Part shown: positions 12,001-27,000 of the stretch, one piece after another
How positions within the stretch are numbered: the stretch's first letter is position 1
Layout: each line of letters starts with the position of its first letter
Assembly: GCA_963702895.1 (NCBI GenBank)
Contig: OY969767.1
Location: forward strand, 2,336,001-2,400,000
Length of the DNA: 64,000 nucleotides
Origin: an uncultured Elusimicrobia bacterium
GTDB taxonomy: Bacteria > Elusimicrobiota > Elusimicrobia > 2-01-FULL-59-12
Direction of reading: 5' to 3'
Program-made: the position numbers

Positions 12001-15000
12001 CTTGCGAAGTTCATGTAGAGCCTCCAGCCGCGCGATGGCTTCGGGCACGAGACCCACGCTCGTGGAGAGCACCGCGTCAATCTCATCACTCTTAAAGCCC
12101 CGCTCTTCCAGAAGGGCAGAAAAACGCTGGAGCATGAAGATTTTCAGTTTTTGTTGGGTATCGTCCGATTGGCTTTGGGCATGGGCTGGCTGCAAACCGA
12201 CGCTCTGCTCCACCAACCATTCCAAACGCCAGGGCCAGCGGGAAGCTTCCAAGATCCTGAGCACCCCCACGGCTGCTCTTCTCAATCCATAAGGATCCGC
12301 CGATCCAGAAGGGATGAGTCCAACGGCAAAGTCGCCTGCCAGAGTGTCCAGCTTATCCGCCAAGGCCACGAGCGAAGCGATGGGAGACGAGGGCAGCTGG
12401 CTGGTGAGCGTCATCGGATGGTAATGTTCCTCGAGCGCCCGGGAGACCGCCGCGTCTTCACCATCGGCCTCCGCGTAGAGCCTTGCGACAACGCCCTGAA
12501 GCTCGGGGAACTCGCGCACCATATCGGTCACCAGATCCGCCTTGCAGAGGTCCGCCGCCCGAAGGGCCTTCGCCAGGTCCTCCAGCCCGCCCGCCGCTGA
12601 GGAGAACGCCTCGATGAGTTTTTTAACTCTTTCTTTTTTGTCGAAGAGATGCCCTAATTTTTCCTGGAAGATGACGCCTTTCAAAGCTTCCACGCGGGAC
12701 GCGAGCGTCTGGCGCCGGTCATGGTCATAGAAAAAGCGGGCGTCGGCGAGCCGTGCAGCCAGCACCCGCTCATAGCCCTCACGGACCATCTCCTGGTGGA
12801 CGGACATCCCGTTACGGATCCCGACAAAGTGCGGCAGAAGATGGCCGCCCGAGGCCTCTTCGACAGGAAAATACTTTTGGTGGTGTTCGAGACACGTCAC
12901 GAGAACTTCCTTGGGAAGCTTTAAATAACCCGCTTCGAAATTGCCGAGGATGGCCACAGGATGCTCGACCAATTGGGTGACCAGCTCAAGCAGGGGCTGC
13001 GACATATGGACCTTCCCGTGGATACGCTTCACCGTCTGATCCGCCAAGCGACGGATGGTCTCCCGGCGCGTTTCGGATTCTACGAGAACACACTGGTTTT
13101 TGAGAGTCATGACATATTTGGACGCTTGCGTGACTTGCACCTTCTTGGGGGCCCAGGGCCCAAGGCCGAGCGTCCAGCGTGCTGAACGTACGCCCGCGAG
13201 CGCAAACGACACAAGATCGGGTCCATAGAGGGCGCAAATCCAACGGATGGGACGCGGGTATCGGAAATTCGAGGGTTCCCAGACCATGGACTTCGGAAAT
13301 TCGAGTTTCGTGATCCATTGGGGAAAAAGATCAGCGAGGAGCTGCCTGGCGGGAACTCCTTTAAGGTGGAGCACGGCACTCACTTTGCCATTTTCGATTT
13401 GGAGCTCGGAAGGTTTGAGTCCCTGCTTGCGCGCAAAACCGAGAGCGGCCGGCGACCATTGTCCCTGCGCGTCCTGCGCAACCTGAACCGGCGGTCCGGA
13501 GACACGCTTTTCTTGGTCCGGCGAGCGATCGGGAAGGCCATGAAGAACGACCGCAAGACGCCGCGGTGTCCCAAAAACTTCAACGCGGTCATACTTCATC
13601 CCGCTTGCCTTCAGGGACTCTTCTGCGAGTCGCGAAAGTTGCTCAAGGGCCGGCGCGATAAAGGAAGCGGGGAGCTCTTCGGAACCAATCTCCAATAGGG
13701 CATCCGACGTGCGACGTCCGAGGTCTGGAGCCTTGGTCATGGGGCGAGGGCCTCGGACGTCGGACGTTGGACATCGGACGATTGGACGTAAGCCTGAGCG
13801 ACGGCGCAGGCGAGCGCCCGCACGCGCGCGATATAAGTGACACGCTCTGAAACGGAGATGGCCCCGCGCGCGTCGAGCAAATTAAACGTATGGGAGCATT
13901 TCATGACCTGCTCATAGGCAGGCTTCACAAGACCCGCAGCCAGCAGGCGTTTGGACTCCCGCTCATAATTCGTAAAGCTCTGGCGCAGGAGGTCCACATC
14001 CGCCAGCTCAAAGTTGTATTTCGAAAACTGTTTTTCATCTTCCAGGTGCATTTCCCCATAGGTGGTTTTGGCCGTCCAGAGCACGTCAAAGACGTTATTT
14101 TTCTTTTGGGAGTACATGGCGAGGCGCTCCAGGCCATAGGTGAGCTCCACTGAAATCGGGTCAAGCTTGACTCCCCCGATTTCTTGAAAATAGGTGAACT
14201 GCGTGATCTCCATGCCGTCCAGCCAAACCTCCCAGCCCAACCCCCAGGCGCCCAGTGTCGGAGATTCCCAGTCGTCTTCCACAAAGCGGATGTCGTGCTG
14301 TTTGGGGTCGATGCCGATCGCCCGCAAAGAGGCCAGGTAGAGCGCCTGGACATTTGAAGGAGAGGGCTTCAGGATCACCTGGTACTGGTAATAATGCTGG
14401 AGGCGATTAGGGTTGTCGCCATAACGGCCATCGGTGGGACGCCGGCTGGGCTCGACATAGGCCACTTTCCAGGGTTTGGGGGTCAGGCACTCGAGGAACG
14501 TCGCGGGGTTGAAGGTCCCGGCGCCTTTTTCGATGTCGTAAGGCTGCCACAGAAGGCATCCCTGCTTCGCCCAGTATTTATGAAGGGTCAGGATGATGTC
14601 TTGAAAGGTCACCCCACCACCTCTTTTCCAACCCTTGATCGCGCAAGCGAGCAAGGCCCGGTCGCGACGGCGACCGGGATTCGCTCCCGCGAATGTTGCA
14701 AAAGAGGTGGTGGGGTCATATTTCAACTCCTGCCAGCTGTCTAAAACGGTTCACGTGCAAAGGTCGGGCCAGATGATCCGTGACGGTTGCCCCGGCCAGA
14801 TGCTCTACGGCCGTGAGCGCGGGGCCCTTCCAATTTTCCCGGGCCAGCACTTCCAAGGGAGCGTTTTTGAGCGCGCCCGCCCAGATCGGGTGCTTTTCCT
14901 CCAAATCCATCCAGGAGTCCCGGTGATCTAAACCCAGTCCCGCCGCCGCCAGAAACCGTACCGCAAAGGCCAGGCGCAGAACCCCCAGATAAGGCGCCGT

Positions 15001-24000: not shown

Positions 24001-27000
24001 TTGGAAACACGGCCCTCGCGCAGGGCGGCTAAAGCGCAGGCGACCGCAAGATACGTTTTCCCCGTTCCCGCCGGACCGATCGCGATCACCATGTCCTTCT
24101 GATCAATAGCCTCCACATATTCTTTCTGCATGGGGGTGCGGGGACGAACGGCTTTGCCGAGGCTGCTCGTAAAGGCGCTGGGGGCGTTGTCGGCTGAGAC
24201 GCCGCTCAGGAGGGATCCTCCTCCACCATCGCCCTCCCGAATCTGCTCACGCATCTCATCGAGGGCGATGAGCGCCTTGTCGACTTTGCCGGGAGAACCG
24301 CGAATGGAGAGCACCTCGCCCCGTCCAAAGATTTGAACCCCGTAGTTTTTCTCAAGGGACCTGAGGGTGTGGTCATTTTGACCAAAGAGCCTTAACGCTT
24401 CGTCCGCACCCTTCAGGTGGACTTTCTTCGTGACCATTAAGGTAATTTAATGCCTAATTCACGCAGTTGTAAAGGGGAAACTGGAGAGGGGGCTCCGGAC
24501 ATGACATCCTGCCCTTTTTGGGTTTTGGGGAAGGCGATCACGTCCCGAATGGTGGGTTCGCCAGAGAGCAGCGCGACGAATCGGTCCAGTCCGAGGGCAA
24601 ATCCTCCATGCGGAGGCGCCCCAAACTCAAGGGCCTCCAGGAGGAAACCAAACTGGAGCTGGGCGGTCTCCGGCGGGATCTGGAGGAGCTTAAAGATGAG
24701 TGCCTGGTCCTCCCTCCGGTGGATACGGATGCTGCCGCCGCCGATTTCTGTGCCGTTTAAGACAAGGTCATAGGCCCGCGCCCGGGCCTGGCCCAGATCC
24801 CTGCCCTCTCGAAGCGCCGGCCAATCCTCCGGGCGCGGGGCGGTGAAGGGATGATGCACGGCATTCCAGCGCTTGGCCTCTTCATCCCATTCAAAGGAAG
24901 GAAACTTTTCGACCCACAGGAATTTCCATTGCCCCTGGGGGATGAGCTTCTGCGTCTCCGCCATCCGCCGCCGCAAGAGCCCCAGGACCTTCAAGACAAG
25001 CGCAGGTTGGTCCGCGACAAAAAAGGTAATGTCTCCCTCCTGGGCTTTGGCTTTCTGTCGAATGGCGGAAAGCTCTTCCGGCTGAAAAAATTTGACAATA
25101 GGGGATTCCGGCGCCCCTGCGGTCCATTTGACCCAGGCAAGTCCCCGGGCGCCCACGGTATTGGCCCATTGCGTGAGATCGTCCGTCTCTTTCCGGGAGA
25201 AGGAGGCGCCCTTGGGCACGGTGATGCCGCGCACCGTTCCACCCTCCGTCACCATTTTGGAAAAAACCTGAAAACCGCAGGCCTTCACGATCTCAGAAAA
25301 ATCGGTCAATTCAAGGCCATACCGGACATCCGGGGCATCCGATCCGTAGCGTGCCATCGCTTCGTCATAGCTCATATGAGGAACAGGCCCGGGAAAGGGT
25401 TGGCCGGTCGCGGCCTGGAAGGCCTCCGCCATAAAGCCTTCGATCACGTTTTGGACGTCTGCTTCATCGACAAAGGACATCTCCAGGTCGACTTGGGTAA
25501 ACTCCGGCTGGCGGTCCGCTCGAAGGTCCTCATCACGAAAGCAGCGCACGATTTGGAAATACTTGTCATAGCCTCCCACCATCAGAATCTGCTTAAAGAG
25601 CTGCGGACTTTGCGGCAGTGCGTAGAAATGACCGATCGCAAGGCGTGAGGGAACGAGAAAGTCACGGGCCCCTTCGGGCGTCGACTTCGTGAGGAAGGGT
25701 GTTTCGATCTCGATAAAACCTTCTTTCGTCAGGTGGTTCCGGACCGCTTGCGCGATTTGGTGCCGCCGCAAGATATTTTTCTGGAGGGGCGGACGGCGCA
25801 GGTCCAGGTAACGGTAGCGCAGCCGGACTTCTTCCCCCGCCTCGGAATAGTCCGAGATCTCAAAAGGAGGCGGCTTGGAGCTGTTGAGCACCTCCAGATC
25901 CACCGCTTCAAGCTCGACATCGCCGGTCGCGATGTTGGCGTTGCGAGTGCCGGCGGGCCGCTCCGTGACTTTCGCGCGGACCTGTACCACGAACTCATTT
26001 CCCAGATTCTGGGCTTTTTCAAAAAGATCCTTGTTCTCCGGCCGAAAGACGACCTGGACCAGCCCCGTTCGGTCACGCAGGTCGCAGAAAATGACCCCTC
26101 CATGATCCCGGCGGCTATGGATCCAACCGCAAACCGTGGACGTCTGCCCGACATGGTTTTTCCGCAAATTCCCGCAATAAATGGTTCGTTTCATGAGAGA
26201 ACGGATTATACCCCGTTTCGAAGGCCCGGGACAGCCCCCGTCCAGCTCAGGGTATAATAAGGCAGGCTATGAAAATTCAGCTCTTTCTCATTCCTTTGCT
26301 CTGCCTCACTCTGGCAAGGGCGGAAAATGACATTTCCGCGCTAGAGACGGGGGTGGAGCGCGAAGACGATACCACCTCGGCCATGGAATCCGAAGCCCAC
26401 GGCATCATTCCTGAAGGCGTGGTGGCCGTCTCCACGCCCCCCCTGACTCCGATTAGCGTGGTGCTGGAAAAAAAGCCATATGAGCAAGCCTTGGAGGAAC
26501 TGGCTCTCGCCCAGGAGCTCTGGAAAAAAGGCAAGGCCGAGGCCGCCTCGGACGTCGCCTTGCAGGCCTATGACGACCTCATGGGCATCCATGTCCCCAA
26601 AAAGAAAACCCAGCAACGCCAGAAACTGCGCCTTGAGCGCCGGCAAGCGGCGACGCTTTACATCGACGCCAGCGTCGCTTACATTCAGGAATACATCAAC
26701 ATGAAAGGCAGCACGCCGGCTGCTATTAAGGAAGGACGTGCCCGCTTGGGCGATTTGTGGGACGTGGCGGTGAACTATCCAGAACTCCAGAAGAAACTTC
26801 GTCGCACCCTGGATGCTTACGACACGACGCTCTCAAGCTCGACCCGCTGACCTTGAAGACGCAGGAACACCGGCTTTCGGCGCAGTGCCCGCTGGATTCA
26901 AAAGTTGACGCCTTTCCTCAGGACTGGTATACCTTCCTCGTGTTGATCGCGCTTGCGCTTCTTGTCCTATCACTCCCAGCTTTGGCTTCGCCCAGTTCAC

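Follow-up and report, generated by a model that had tools for sequence, protein, structure and literature searches.

Several ribosome-assembly GTPases that are held to be indispensable are missing from the 2.7-Mb genome of an uncultured Elusimicrobia bacterium with full-length rRNAs. We consider, with a probability of about 0.8, that these are true evolutionary gene losses, which would have proceeded stepwise in a phylum where the genomes sampled are already without SRP targeting. The gene der was deleted between pgsA and plsY in the ancestor of the order, and in the scheme that we propose Era, which a wider set of lineages lacks, would have been lost before it. Maturation of the 30S and 50S subunits could now depend on the retained Obg, HflX, TypA/BipA, LepA, YchF, RbfA and YbeY, and slow growth or altered rRNA or ribosomal proteins may help.

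Genome integrity, missing factors and retained GTPases

The genome (GCA_963702895.1) is a single contig of 2,724,539 bp with 0 N, a completeness of 98.03 % and a contamination of 1.8 %; its cumulative GC skew has a minimum at 0 and a maximum at 1.38 Mb, which is half of the contig, and the 2.72-Mb genome looks closed. Its single rRNA operon covers the full models of the 16S (1-1533) and 23S (1-2925) rRNAs, the 5S rRNA is also full-length, and the 3' end of the 16S rRNA reads GGATCACCTCCTT. With rRNAs of full size and an intact 16S tail, the substrates of Era and Der are thus still present.

Profile searches of this genome were run in six frames with positive controls, and all candidates were scored. 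The best scores stayed below the curated cut-offs for Era (57.5 bits against 116), Der (125.7 vs 306.7), EngB (41.8 vs 124.45), RsgA (16.3 vs 100) and RbgA (39.3 vs 208.2), and the top matches below the cut-offs map to MnmE, Obg, FeoB, HflX, YchF and IF2. For RimM, RuvX/YqgF and RelA_SpoT the genome yielded nothing at E<=1, and for prfC (RF3) only a weak secondary match in NCBIfam. Using HMMs based on 11 Era and 10 Der sequences from within the phylum, we recovered only MnmE, Obg, IF2, HflX, FeoB and YchF among the 29,099 ORFs of this genome, and a census of G1-G3-G4 motifs returned 10 ORFs, each of them one of eleven named GTPases. The absence of Era, Der, EngB, RsgA, RbgA, RimM, YqgF and RelA/SpoT, claimed in the initial annotation, is therefore borne out by profiles, phylum HMMs and motif census alike, and these factors, together with RF3, are not encoded in this genome in any form that homology searches recognise.

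Exactly 11 translation-type GTPases, as had been claimed, pass the NCBIfam equivalog cut-offs (MnmE, Obg, FeoB, YchF, HflX, EF-G, two EF-Tu, IF2, LepA and TypA), all with ordinary lengths and full-length equivalog matches. RbfA (97.2 bits, adjoining infB) and YbeY (Pfam) are also present.

The phoH to glyS row

The canonical Terrabacteria-type era neighbourhood is phoH-ybeY ... era-recO-glyQS, as in Bacillus. The window, that is the whole stretch of 64,000 nucleotides that was analysed (contig OY969767.1, positions 2,336,001 to 2,400,000), resembles it in carrying phoH, a 7TM-HD gene, ybeY, recO, glyQ and glyS in the same order and on one strand (Table 1), but differs from it by the absence of era and by the presence, between ybeY and recO, of a CNNM gene and of an opposite-strand ORF of 1,449 aa. 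The Pfam match of YbeY begins at residue 77 of its ORF, so that the true ybeY start is probably further downstream.

Table 1. Genes of the row from glyS to aspS, with positions in the window
Feature	Position	Strand	Evidence and remarks
glyS (glycyl-tRNA synthetase beta)	11611..13740	-	Pfam tRNA_synt_2f 625 bits; end of canonical era neighbourhood
glyQ (glycyl-tRNA synthetase alpha)	13737..14726	-	Pfam tRNA-synt_2e 489.8 bits
recO	14716..15486	-	Pfam RecO_N 57.8, RecO_C 46.3 bits
1,449-aa ORF, kinase/sugar-nucleotide-type fusion	15757..20106	+	Pfam PfkB 127.6, RmlD_sub_bind 135 bits
CNNM/CBS/CorC-type transporter-associated protein (ybeX/corC-like)	20156..21514	-	Pfam CNNM 100.1, CBS 47.1 bits
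ybeY endoribonuclease (16S 3'-end maturation)	21490..22149	-	Pfam YbeY 102.4 bits
7TM receptor with intracellular HD hydrolase (yqfF-like)	21971..23581	-	Pfam 7TM-7TMR_HD 92.5, HD 58.5 bits
phoH/ybeZ-like ATPase	23502..24437	-	Pfam PhoH 299.5 bits
aspS, flanking gene	24437..26194	-	Pfam tRNA-synt_2 385 bits, GAD, OB

The initial annotation had described this row without era and with a giant gene inside, which stands, except that the ORF measures 1,449 aa and not 1,401, presumably because a later start codon had been chosen. The start of the ORF is signal/TM-like, a PfkB sugar-kinase domain spans about 817-1127 and an RmlD-like reductase domain 1137-1405; in NCBIfam the ORF scores below the cut-offs for hexose kinase (194.9, under 216.4) and rmlD (131, under 224). 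Its first 816 residues match no family, and the N-terminal 830 aa gave only the weak matches EcKL (E 0.028) and TCAD9 (E 0.013); a stretch with an HGDL..N..D motif is, in our reading, kinase-like. We rejected this ORF as a GTPase, as it carries PfkB and RmlD_sub_bind domains and has no Era or Der profile match at E<=10.

The view that this gene occupies the place of era did not hold, since era lies far from the homologues of the row in Era-bearing relatives: homologues of recO, cnnM, ybeY, the HD protein and glyQS were found within 10 kb of era in none of 12 such relatives (6 families), and a phoH-like match lies 3 kb from era in one of the 12. In these relatives era sits elsewhere, adjoining an SPFH/Band 7 gene in families f3 and f8 and, as read from 65-72 % identity and lengths, groES-groEL-like ORFs in f11. 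Nothing shows a displacement of era by the giant gene, which is on the opposite strand. Passages of the review of Gruffaz & Smirnov (2023, PMC10582724) give ybeY, phoH, recO, glyQS, lepA, lepB and nfeD as recurrent neighbours of era.

Deletion of der between pgsA and plsY

In the sister lineage of families f5 and f13, the row hflX-pgsA-der-plsY-gpsA(-like) was found in 4 of 4 genomes, and at least 8 neighbours of this der locus are collinear with the contig studied here (907.9-916 kb). On that contig pgsA (857-1378 of locus L005) and plsY (255-893) overlap by 37 bp, with no der between them, and hflX is encoded two genes from the scar. The two genes abut or overlap without der in 10 of the 11 other genomes of the order, plsY not being found in the eleventh, and tblastn with an f5 Der at E<=1e-8 detected no remnant of der at any of the 10 order loci with plsY. 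We conclude that a single clean deletion removed der in the order's ancestor; its excision from this conserved row is a new observation of this analysis.

Distribution and trees of Era, Der and EngB

Across 401 genomes of the phylum, for which 4-12 first-look candidates were scored per genome and which are mostly draft bins (34-100 % complete), Era was detected in 219 (E<=1e-30), Der in 107 (E<=1e-50), neither in 76 and both in a single one. This lone genome, G235, carries era on a 3-kb contig with a GC of 0.295, against 0.37-0.43 in f17 loci, and its Era groups with Bacillota-type sequences; the mutual exclusion previously noticed thus persists in the larger sample, the one exception resting on a doubtful contig. 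The order as a whole also lacks both proteins, as had been stated, none of its 12 genomes reaching the cut-off for either. The proposal that EngB goes with Der does not hold in the sample of 401 genomes: EngB occurs in 148, including Era-only families (f8 38/48, f6 5/10, f11 5/8, f12 1/1) and groups without Era and Der (f10 2/5, f29 3/3, genus g32 5/5, and G008 of the genome's own family), and is missing from the Der families f13, f22, f25 and f27.

We annotated these distributions on a LepA tree, a single-gene, unrooted tree from a quick search in which only short branches (support 79-95) connect the three main groups. The order is sister to the Der-bearing f5/f13 (support 95); Era occurs only in one group of families and in f26, being missing throughout groups II and III with the exception of f26, and Der only in the other groups. 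As a much wider set of lineages lacks Era, its loss probably preceded that of Der in this line, and the stepwise loss of assembly GTPases suggested earlier gains support from this sister position and from the directly visible excision of der. About 6 changes per gene, following deep clades, explain both patterns, and the nearest Era-less relatives of Era-bearers also lack Der. The exclusion is mainly a deep-clade pattern.

The Era proteins of f3, f4, f8, f9 and f11 group in a single clade (99), and the branching order inside it agrees with the LepA tree, which fits vertical descent. Family f26 has Era and lacks Der within a Der-rich group, and in the best Era tree its Era stands apart from the other Era of the phylum, beside that of an Aquifex MAG (support 97); the AU test nevertheless does not reject one common origin for all 21 Era of the phylum (p 0.313). 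If the f26 Era is vertical, ancestors long held both Era and Der, and the total lack of living genomes with both then needs explaining.

SRP system

The lack of Ffh and FtsY claimed for this genome is confirmed: the best scores were 13.5 vs a cut-off of 473 bits for the Ffh profile and 16.2 vs 22.7 bits for the SRP54 domain, the small and large SRP RNA families had no match at E<=10, no ORF combines the SRP-GTPase motifs, and phmmer with two FlhF-like proteins of the phylum gave a best E of 0.12. Ffh was found in none of the 12 genomes of the order. Over the phylum, the Ffh model matched 2 of 401 genomes at E<=1e-20, which NCBIfam identifies as FlhF-like in both cases, and the SRP54 domain 1 of 256, all SRP54-type matches being FlhF-like, so that no Ffh or FtsY was found in either sample. 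This lack across the sampled phylum is arguably the larger anomaly, though briefly noted in print: passages of Harris & Goldman (2021, PLoS Comput Biol, PMC7987157) report SRP homologues in few Elusimicrobia and SecY on long branches, and suggest a loss of Ffh and FtsY. According to those passages they worked from GenBank protein accessions, of which the phylum contributed three, whereas 401 and 256 genomes were searched here, the only SRP54-type matches are FlhF-like and this genome has neither SRP RNA family.

Alternative explanations

Era and Der could substitute for each other functionally, either one sufficing so that a lineage discards the other, with double loss as a further step. The absence of any credible genome with both among 401 (the era of G235 being on its odd low-GC contig) agrees with this, and an f26 Era near that of an Aquifex MAG would fit a horizontal gain accompanying the loss of Der. 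However, the separate origin of the f26 Era is not significant, the 76 genomes with neither gene and the few clade-following changes argue against it, and in independent contrasts over 5-6 pairs differing in Era, Der was opposite in 0.4 on average and the same in 4.6 (sign test p = 1), that is, without a reciprocal pattern. The two proteins also act at different places, Era on the 30S platform and the 16S 3' end according to passages of PMC10582724, and der being needed for 50S maturation according to passages of PMC12641178. We consider this substitution unlikely, and the earlier suggestion that the two proteins can take each other's place is not upheld; their strict non-co-occurrence is best explained by a few ancient losses at the level of clades and not by replacement.

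Slightly less probable still is a non-orthologous replacement, in which the roles of Era and Der would have passed to an unrecognised protein, be it a new NTPase, an RNA-binding protein or one of the retained GTPases in remodelled form. The persistence of the substrates of both factors, full-size rRNAs and the Era-binding 16S tail, would favour it, as would the many unassigned ORFs, such as the first 816 residues of the 1,449-aa ORF; yet the motif census and the weak profile matches yield no additional GTPase-like ORF, the retained GTPases are ordinary in length with full-length equivalog matches, and no candidate emerged. That the genes were simply missed, through an incomplete or chimeric assembly or a search pre-filter failing on this phylum, seems very improbable. 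The draft state of most relatives and the partial scoring of first-look candidates over the phylum speak for such an artefact, but the genome itself is one gap-free contig with symmetric GC skew for which all candidates were scored, independent HMM, motif and phmmer searches concur, the same searches detect Era and Der in hundreds of relatives (219 and 107), so that the filter works there, the der junction provides sequence-level evidence in 11 genomes, and the scarcity of SRP homologues in Elusimicrobia was reported independently in passages of PMC7987157. True, stepwise gene loss is thus our preferred reading.

Comparison with known systems

The patchy occurrence of Era and the scarcity of SRP in the phylum are already published, as are flexible assembly-factor sets in CPR bacteria. 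Passages of PMC10582724 place era in certain Elusimicrobiota species and report it missing from others; these passages hold no family-level map of the phylum, link to Der, lineages with double loss or deletion junction. Neither a phylum mostly without Der nor lineages that lack both Era and Der while having full-size rRNAs were found in the literature searched.

A close parallel is described in passages of Amikura et al. (2025, Mol Biol Evol, PMC12641178), according to which CPR/Patescibacteria, with reduced genomes and smaller ribosomes, have reduced, class-specific sets of ribosome-biogenesis factors. As there, we find clade-specific loss of factors thought indispensable (der, era, obgE and rbfA in CPR) and complementary distributions between pairs of factors, so that ribosome biogenesis appears more flexible than assumed. 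By contrast with the CPR described in those passages, the genome studied here is 2.7 Mb in size, has full-length rRNAs and keeps Obg and RbfA, and the excluding pair is Era/Der, where in CPR it is der/obgE or era/rbfA.

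Ribosome-assembly GTPases of the genome

Using six-frame profile searches, we examined the whole genome (2,724,539 bp in one contig, zero N, 98.03 % complete) for Era, defined by a full-length TIGR00436 match of more than 116.25 bits with one Era-type G domain ahead of a type-II KH domain at the C terminus, and for Der/EngA, defined by a TIGR03594 score above 306.7 bits with two tandem G domains and a C-terminal KH-like domain. The top scores in this genome were 57.5 bits for Era (G domain only) and 125.7 bits for Der (one G domain), both within the MnmE ORF, and HMMs trained on Era (11) and Der (10) sequences from the phylum reached maxima of 62.9 and 82.1 bits, respectively. 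Neither protein scores above its cut-off in any of the 12 genomes of the order, this one included. EngB/YsxC (TIGR03598, cut-off 124.45 bits), RsgA (TIGR00157, 100 bits) and RbgA/YlqF (TIGR03596, 208.2 bits) gave own-genome maxima of 41.8, 16.3 and 39.3 bits, located in FeoB or an ABC-transporter ORF; EngB is found at 186 bits in a genome of the same family (G008). Control genomes gave hits in the searches for all five of these proteins. RimM (TIGR02273), YqgF/RuvX (PF03652) and the RelA/SpoT synthetase (PF04607) had no match in this genome at E<=1, and the positive controls of these searches responded in 10-13 of 14 genomes.

All sub-threshold profile matches fall in MnmE, Obg, FeoB, HflX, YchF, IF2 or unrelated P-loop ATPases, and a census of G1-G3-G4 motifs returned 10 ORFs from this genome, every one a named GTPase. 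P-loop matches at contig 668, 817, 1,155, 1,224, 1,280, 2,430 and 76 kb were discarded as GTPases, since by their N-terminal sequences they look like guanylate kinase, DnaX, a RarA-like AAA protein, ABC transporters, Rho and ABC-F. The GC-skew extremes of the contig, at 0 and 1.38 Mb, are those expected for a complete circle opened at origin or terminus. Profile searches, phylum HMMs and motif census therefore agree with the initial annotation, which had reported the genome to be devoid of Era, Der, EngB, RsgA and RbgA, and its statement that RimM, YqgF and RelA/SpoT are missing as well also holds. RelA is recorded for Elusimicrobium minutum in a passage of PMC7058999, which means that it is not missing throughout the phylum; in the present genome, the lack of RelA/SpoT would imply that the remaining GTPases are free of (p)ppGpp control.

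The eleven translation-type GTPases listed by the initial annotation were recovered exactly, each by an NCBIfam equivalog match above the curated cut-off.

Translation-type GTPases retained in the genome (NCBIfam equivalog matches, bits)
Protein	Score	Cut-off
MnmE	388.9	380
Obg	529.9	406
FeoB	474.3	315.65
YchF	421	279.2
HflX	451.5	216.75
EF-G	1134.3	659.4
EF-Tu (two copies, each)	676	522.4
IF2	807.4	424.4
LepA	931.6	533.9
TypA	864	757.3

RbfA is also retained, its gene adjoining infB, and there is one rRNA operon, of full length, in which the 16S 3' tail, to which Era binds, is intact. Era contacts 16S h45 in addition to the 3' tail, and Der the peptidyl-transferase-centre region of the 23S rRNA. 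Ribosome assembly might then be carried by Obg, HflX, TypA, LepA, YchF, RbfA and YbeY, or alternatively by a substitute factor that has escaped recognition.

The recO-phoH row and the position of era

Positions of the features discussed
Feature	Position	Strand	Remark
recO	window, within 14716-24437	-	flanked outward by glyQ/glyS
1,449-aa ORF	window 15757-20106	+	within the recO-phoH row
CNNM/CBS gene, ybeY, 7TM-HD gene, phoH	window, within 14716-24437	-	flanked outward by aspS
Open frame of 12,935 codons	contig 749878-788682	+	38.8 kb; outside the window
Segment collinear with the der locus of sister families f5 and f13	contig 907.9-916 kb		at least 8 neighbouring genes
hflX, pgsA-like, (der), plsY, gpsA-like row	contig, about 912.5-916 kb		locus L005; row also at L196-L209
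pgsA-like/plsY overlap	contig, about 913,404-913,440		locus L005
lepA-lepB-nfeD-SPFH/Band7-HemN-like radical SAM genes	contig 1443501-1450000	one strand	locus L210

According to a passage of the Era review (Gruffaz & Smirnov 2023, PMC10582724), phoH, ybeY, recO and glyQS are recurrent neighbours of era, and the row in the window thus has the make-up of a canonical era neighbourhood from which era itself is missing. The initial annotation had placed a giant gene, given as 1,401 aa and here read as the 1,449-aa ORF, where era often lies. This could not be upheld when the window proteins were compared with the era surroundings of 12 Era-bearing relatives (three of family f3, four of f4, one each of f8, f9 and f26 and two of f11), as era lies elsewhere in all 12 and none of them shares the row within 10 kb on either side of it, the one resemblance being a phoH-like hit 3 kb from era in a single relative. 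In f11 era adjoins groES-groEL-like ORFs, and in f3 and f8 an SPFH/Band 7 gene; since its context varies by family, a scar of era cannot be located, and the row of the window merely resembles the era surroundings of other phyla. The same review text names lepA, lepB and nfeD among era neighbours, and the lepA-lepB-nfeD-Band7 cluster of this genome likewise contains no era.

The 1,449-aa ORF is not a GTPase; it carries a PfkB sugar-kinase domain (127.6 bits, gathering threshold 25.8) and an RmlD-like NAD-dependent reductase domain (RmlD_sub_bind, 135 bits, threshold 27). It scores below the equivalog cut-offs tried for both, 1-phosphofructokinase (pfkB, 187.7 < 292) and dTDP-4-dehydrorhamnose reductase (rmlD, 131 < 224). 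Its start is signal- or TM-like and a kinase-like HGDL..N..D motif lies in the N-terminal 816 residues, which are unassigned and come before these two domains; all Pfam matches within the N-terminal 830 aa are sub-threshold. So unusual a fusion suggests an enzyme that modifies sugars or glycans in several steps. A far longer open frame, noted in the six-frame ORF list, is included in the table.

A der-free junction in the order

The main new evidence comes from outside the window. In all four genomes of the Der-bearing sister families f5 and f13, the gene order is hflX, pgsA-like, der, plsY and gpsA-like, the Der protein consisting of two MMR_HSR1 domains and a KH_dom-like domain, and the locus is collinear with the present contig. 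In our genome, plsY and the pgsA-like gene have 37 bp in common, with neither space for der nor a remnant of it. We located plsY in 10 of the 11 other genomes of the order, and all 10, including those of a second family (f2), have the der-free order hflX-pgsA-plsY-gpsA. The junction amounts to a single clean deletion of der in the ancestor of the order and rules out an assembly artefact. HflX, also a 50S-binding GTPase, is encoded two genes from the deletion site.

Distribution of Era, Der and EngB in the phylum

Among 401 genomes of the phylum, mostly draft bins and with part of the first-look candidates scored per genome, Era is found in 219 (218 above cut-off) and Der in 107 (105 above cut-off). 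Neither is present in 76 genomes, among which are 91-99 % complete bins of families f7, f10, f16, f19, f20, f21 and f23. Only one genome, G235, has both, and the mutual exclusion of Era and Der put forward by the initial annotation is upheld, as the era of G235 is carried by a suspect 3,023-bp contig (C295, L015) of GC 0.295. This Era outscores every other one and falls among Bacillota-type sequences, whereas the rest of the bin carries Der and EngB; the contig is either an import of very recent date or a contaminant, probably one from binning. The proposed association of EngB with Der did not survive the larger sample: EngB, encoded by 148 of the genomes, is frequent in the Era families f8, f6 and f11, it also occurs in the Era- and Der-less f10, f29, genus g32 and one member of the present genome's own family, and it is missing from the Der families f13, f22, f25 and f27.

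Two further Era sequences have unexpected labels. That of a 4,976-bp contig labelled Methanobrevibacter smithii (L133) is near-identical to Collinsella Era (branch lengths 0-0.006); Archaea are reported to be without era, so bacterial DNA has probably contaminated an archaeal assembly here. That of L186, labelled Candidatus Peribacteria, clusters tightly with Era of Chloroflexota and Binatia (support 100), which may reflect transfer or mis-binning.

Order of the losses

An unrooted tree of a single gene, LepA, computed with a quick IQ-TREE run, covers 61 genomes in 35 families; 20 of 80 genomes were omitted before building, four for a partial LepA (G131, G187, G250 and G357) and the remainder as redundant representatives of families already included. 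Three groups joined by short branches were obtained: group I with f11, f9, f10, f3, f15, f4, f12, f7, f6 and f8, group II with the present order and f5/f13 (support 95), and group III with all remaining families. Era is confined to group I and, elsewhere, to f26, and Der to groups II and III. At least 6 changes on this tree are needed to explain Era, another 6 to explain Der, and 14 to explain EngB.

Such a pattern could arise if Era and Der substituted for each other, as the initial annotation had proposed. In the 5-6 independent pairs that differ in Era, however, Der shows the opposite state in 0.4 on average and no difference in 4.6 (p = 1), and the pattern follows deep clades, so that substitution is not borne out: the exclusion is real, yet it traces to few deep events. 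Era of f3, f4, f8, f9 and f11 forms one clade (support 99) whose LepA-like inner order argues for vertical inheritance. Era of f26 is placed with an Aquifex MAG in the best tree (support 97), for which 80 outgroup sequences were taken arbitrarily from at least 506 relatives; a horizontal origin was nevertheless not retained, as a single clade of all 21 Era of the phylum is not rejected (AU p 0.313). As the absence of Era is widely shared and that of Der dates to the ancestor of the order, the lineage likely lost Era first, then Der, and EngB patchily.

Signal recognition particle

For the SRP, we required an SRP54-type NG domain (with an M domain for Ffh) and SRP RNA. In our genome the Ffh model (TIGR00959) reached a best E of 0.025, PF00448, the GTPase domain common to Ffh and FtsY, a top score of 16.2 bits against a cut-off of 22.7, and the small and large SRP RNA models (RF00169 and RF01854) gave nothing at E<=10; none of its ORFs combines SRP-GTPase motifs, and phmmer with the two FlhF-like proteins of the phylum reached a best E of 0.12. 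Ffh was found in none of the 12 genomes of the order. In the phylum, 2 of 401 genomes gave a hit with the Ffh model and 1 of 256 with the SRP54 domain, all hits being FlhF-like. Judged by these sequence models, the SRP is absent across the phylum samples searched, in agreement with a brief published remark, in a passage of PMC7987157, on the few SRP homologues of Elusimicrobia. The FlhF-like genes (L013 in G131 and L014 in G328), the sole SRP54-type GTPases of these samples, are a hint that flagellar gene sets occur, though rarely, in this phylum.

Implications and comparison with other bacteria

Marker-gene work calls for caution here: the standard bacterial set includes era, der, ffh and ftsY, which will be systematically missing in this phylum. 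One tentative reading, to which we give about one chance in four, is that loss of the SRP at or near the root of the phylum was followed by a rewiring of ribosome maturation, such that the two proteins together are neither tolerated nor needed by any lineage, and several lineages of normal genome size with full rRNAs, the present one among them, use neither. If so, either a compensating factor would have gone unrecognised or the assembly pathway would have changed, perhaps around Obg and HflX, and sister pairs differing by the clean der deletion would provide a natural test of the "essentiality" of Era and Der.

In the literature searched, the patchy occurrence of era in Elusimicrobiota is already published (in a passage of PMC10582724), and we found no report of the absence of Der through most of the phylum, of the non-co-occurrence of Era and Der, of double-loss lineages or of the der junction, for which supplementary tables may hold per-phylum counts. 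The abstract of the same review describes Era as critically required in bacterial-type ribosome assembly; here, in a phylum outside the CPR (Patescibacteria), 294 of 401 genomes are without Der and 76 without both, among the latter a genome of 2.7 Mb whose rRNAs are full length. In CPR bacteria, der co-varies with uL1, bL9 and H78 (PMC12641178). Where sister lineages differ in der at an otherwise collinear locus, they offer contrasts for what makes such GTPases dispensable, a question relevant to basic ribosome biology and to the use of Era- and Der-type GTPases as antibacterial targets.
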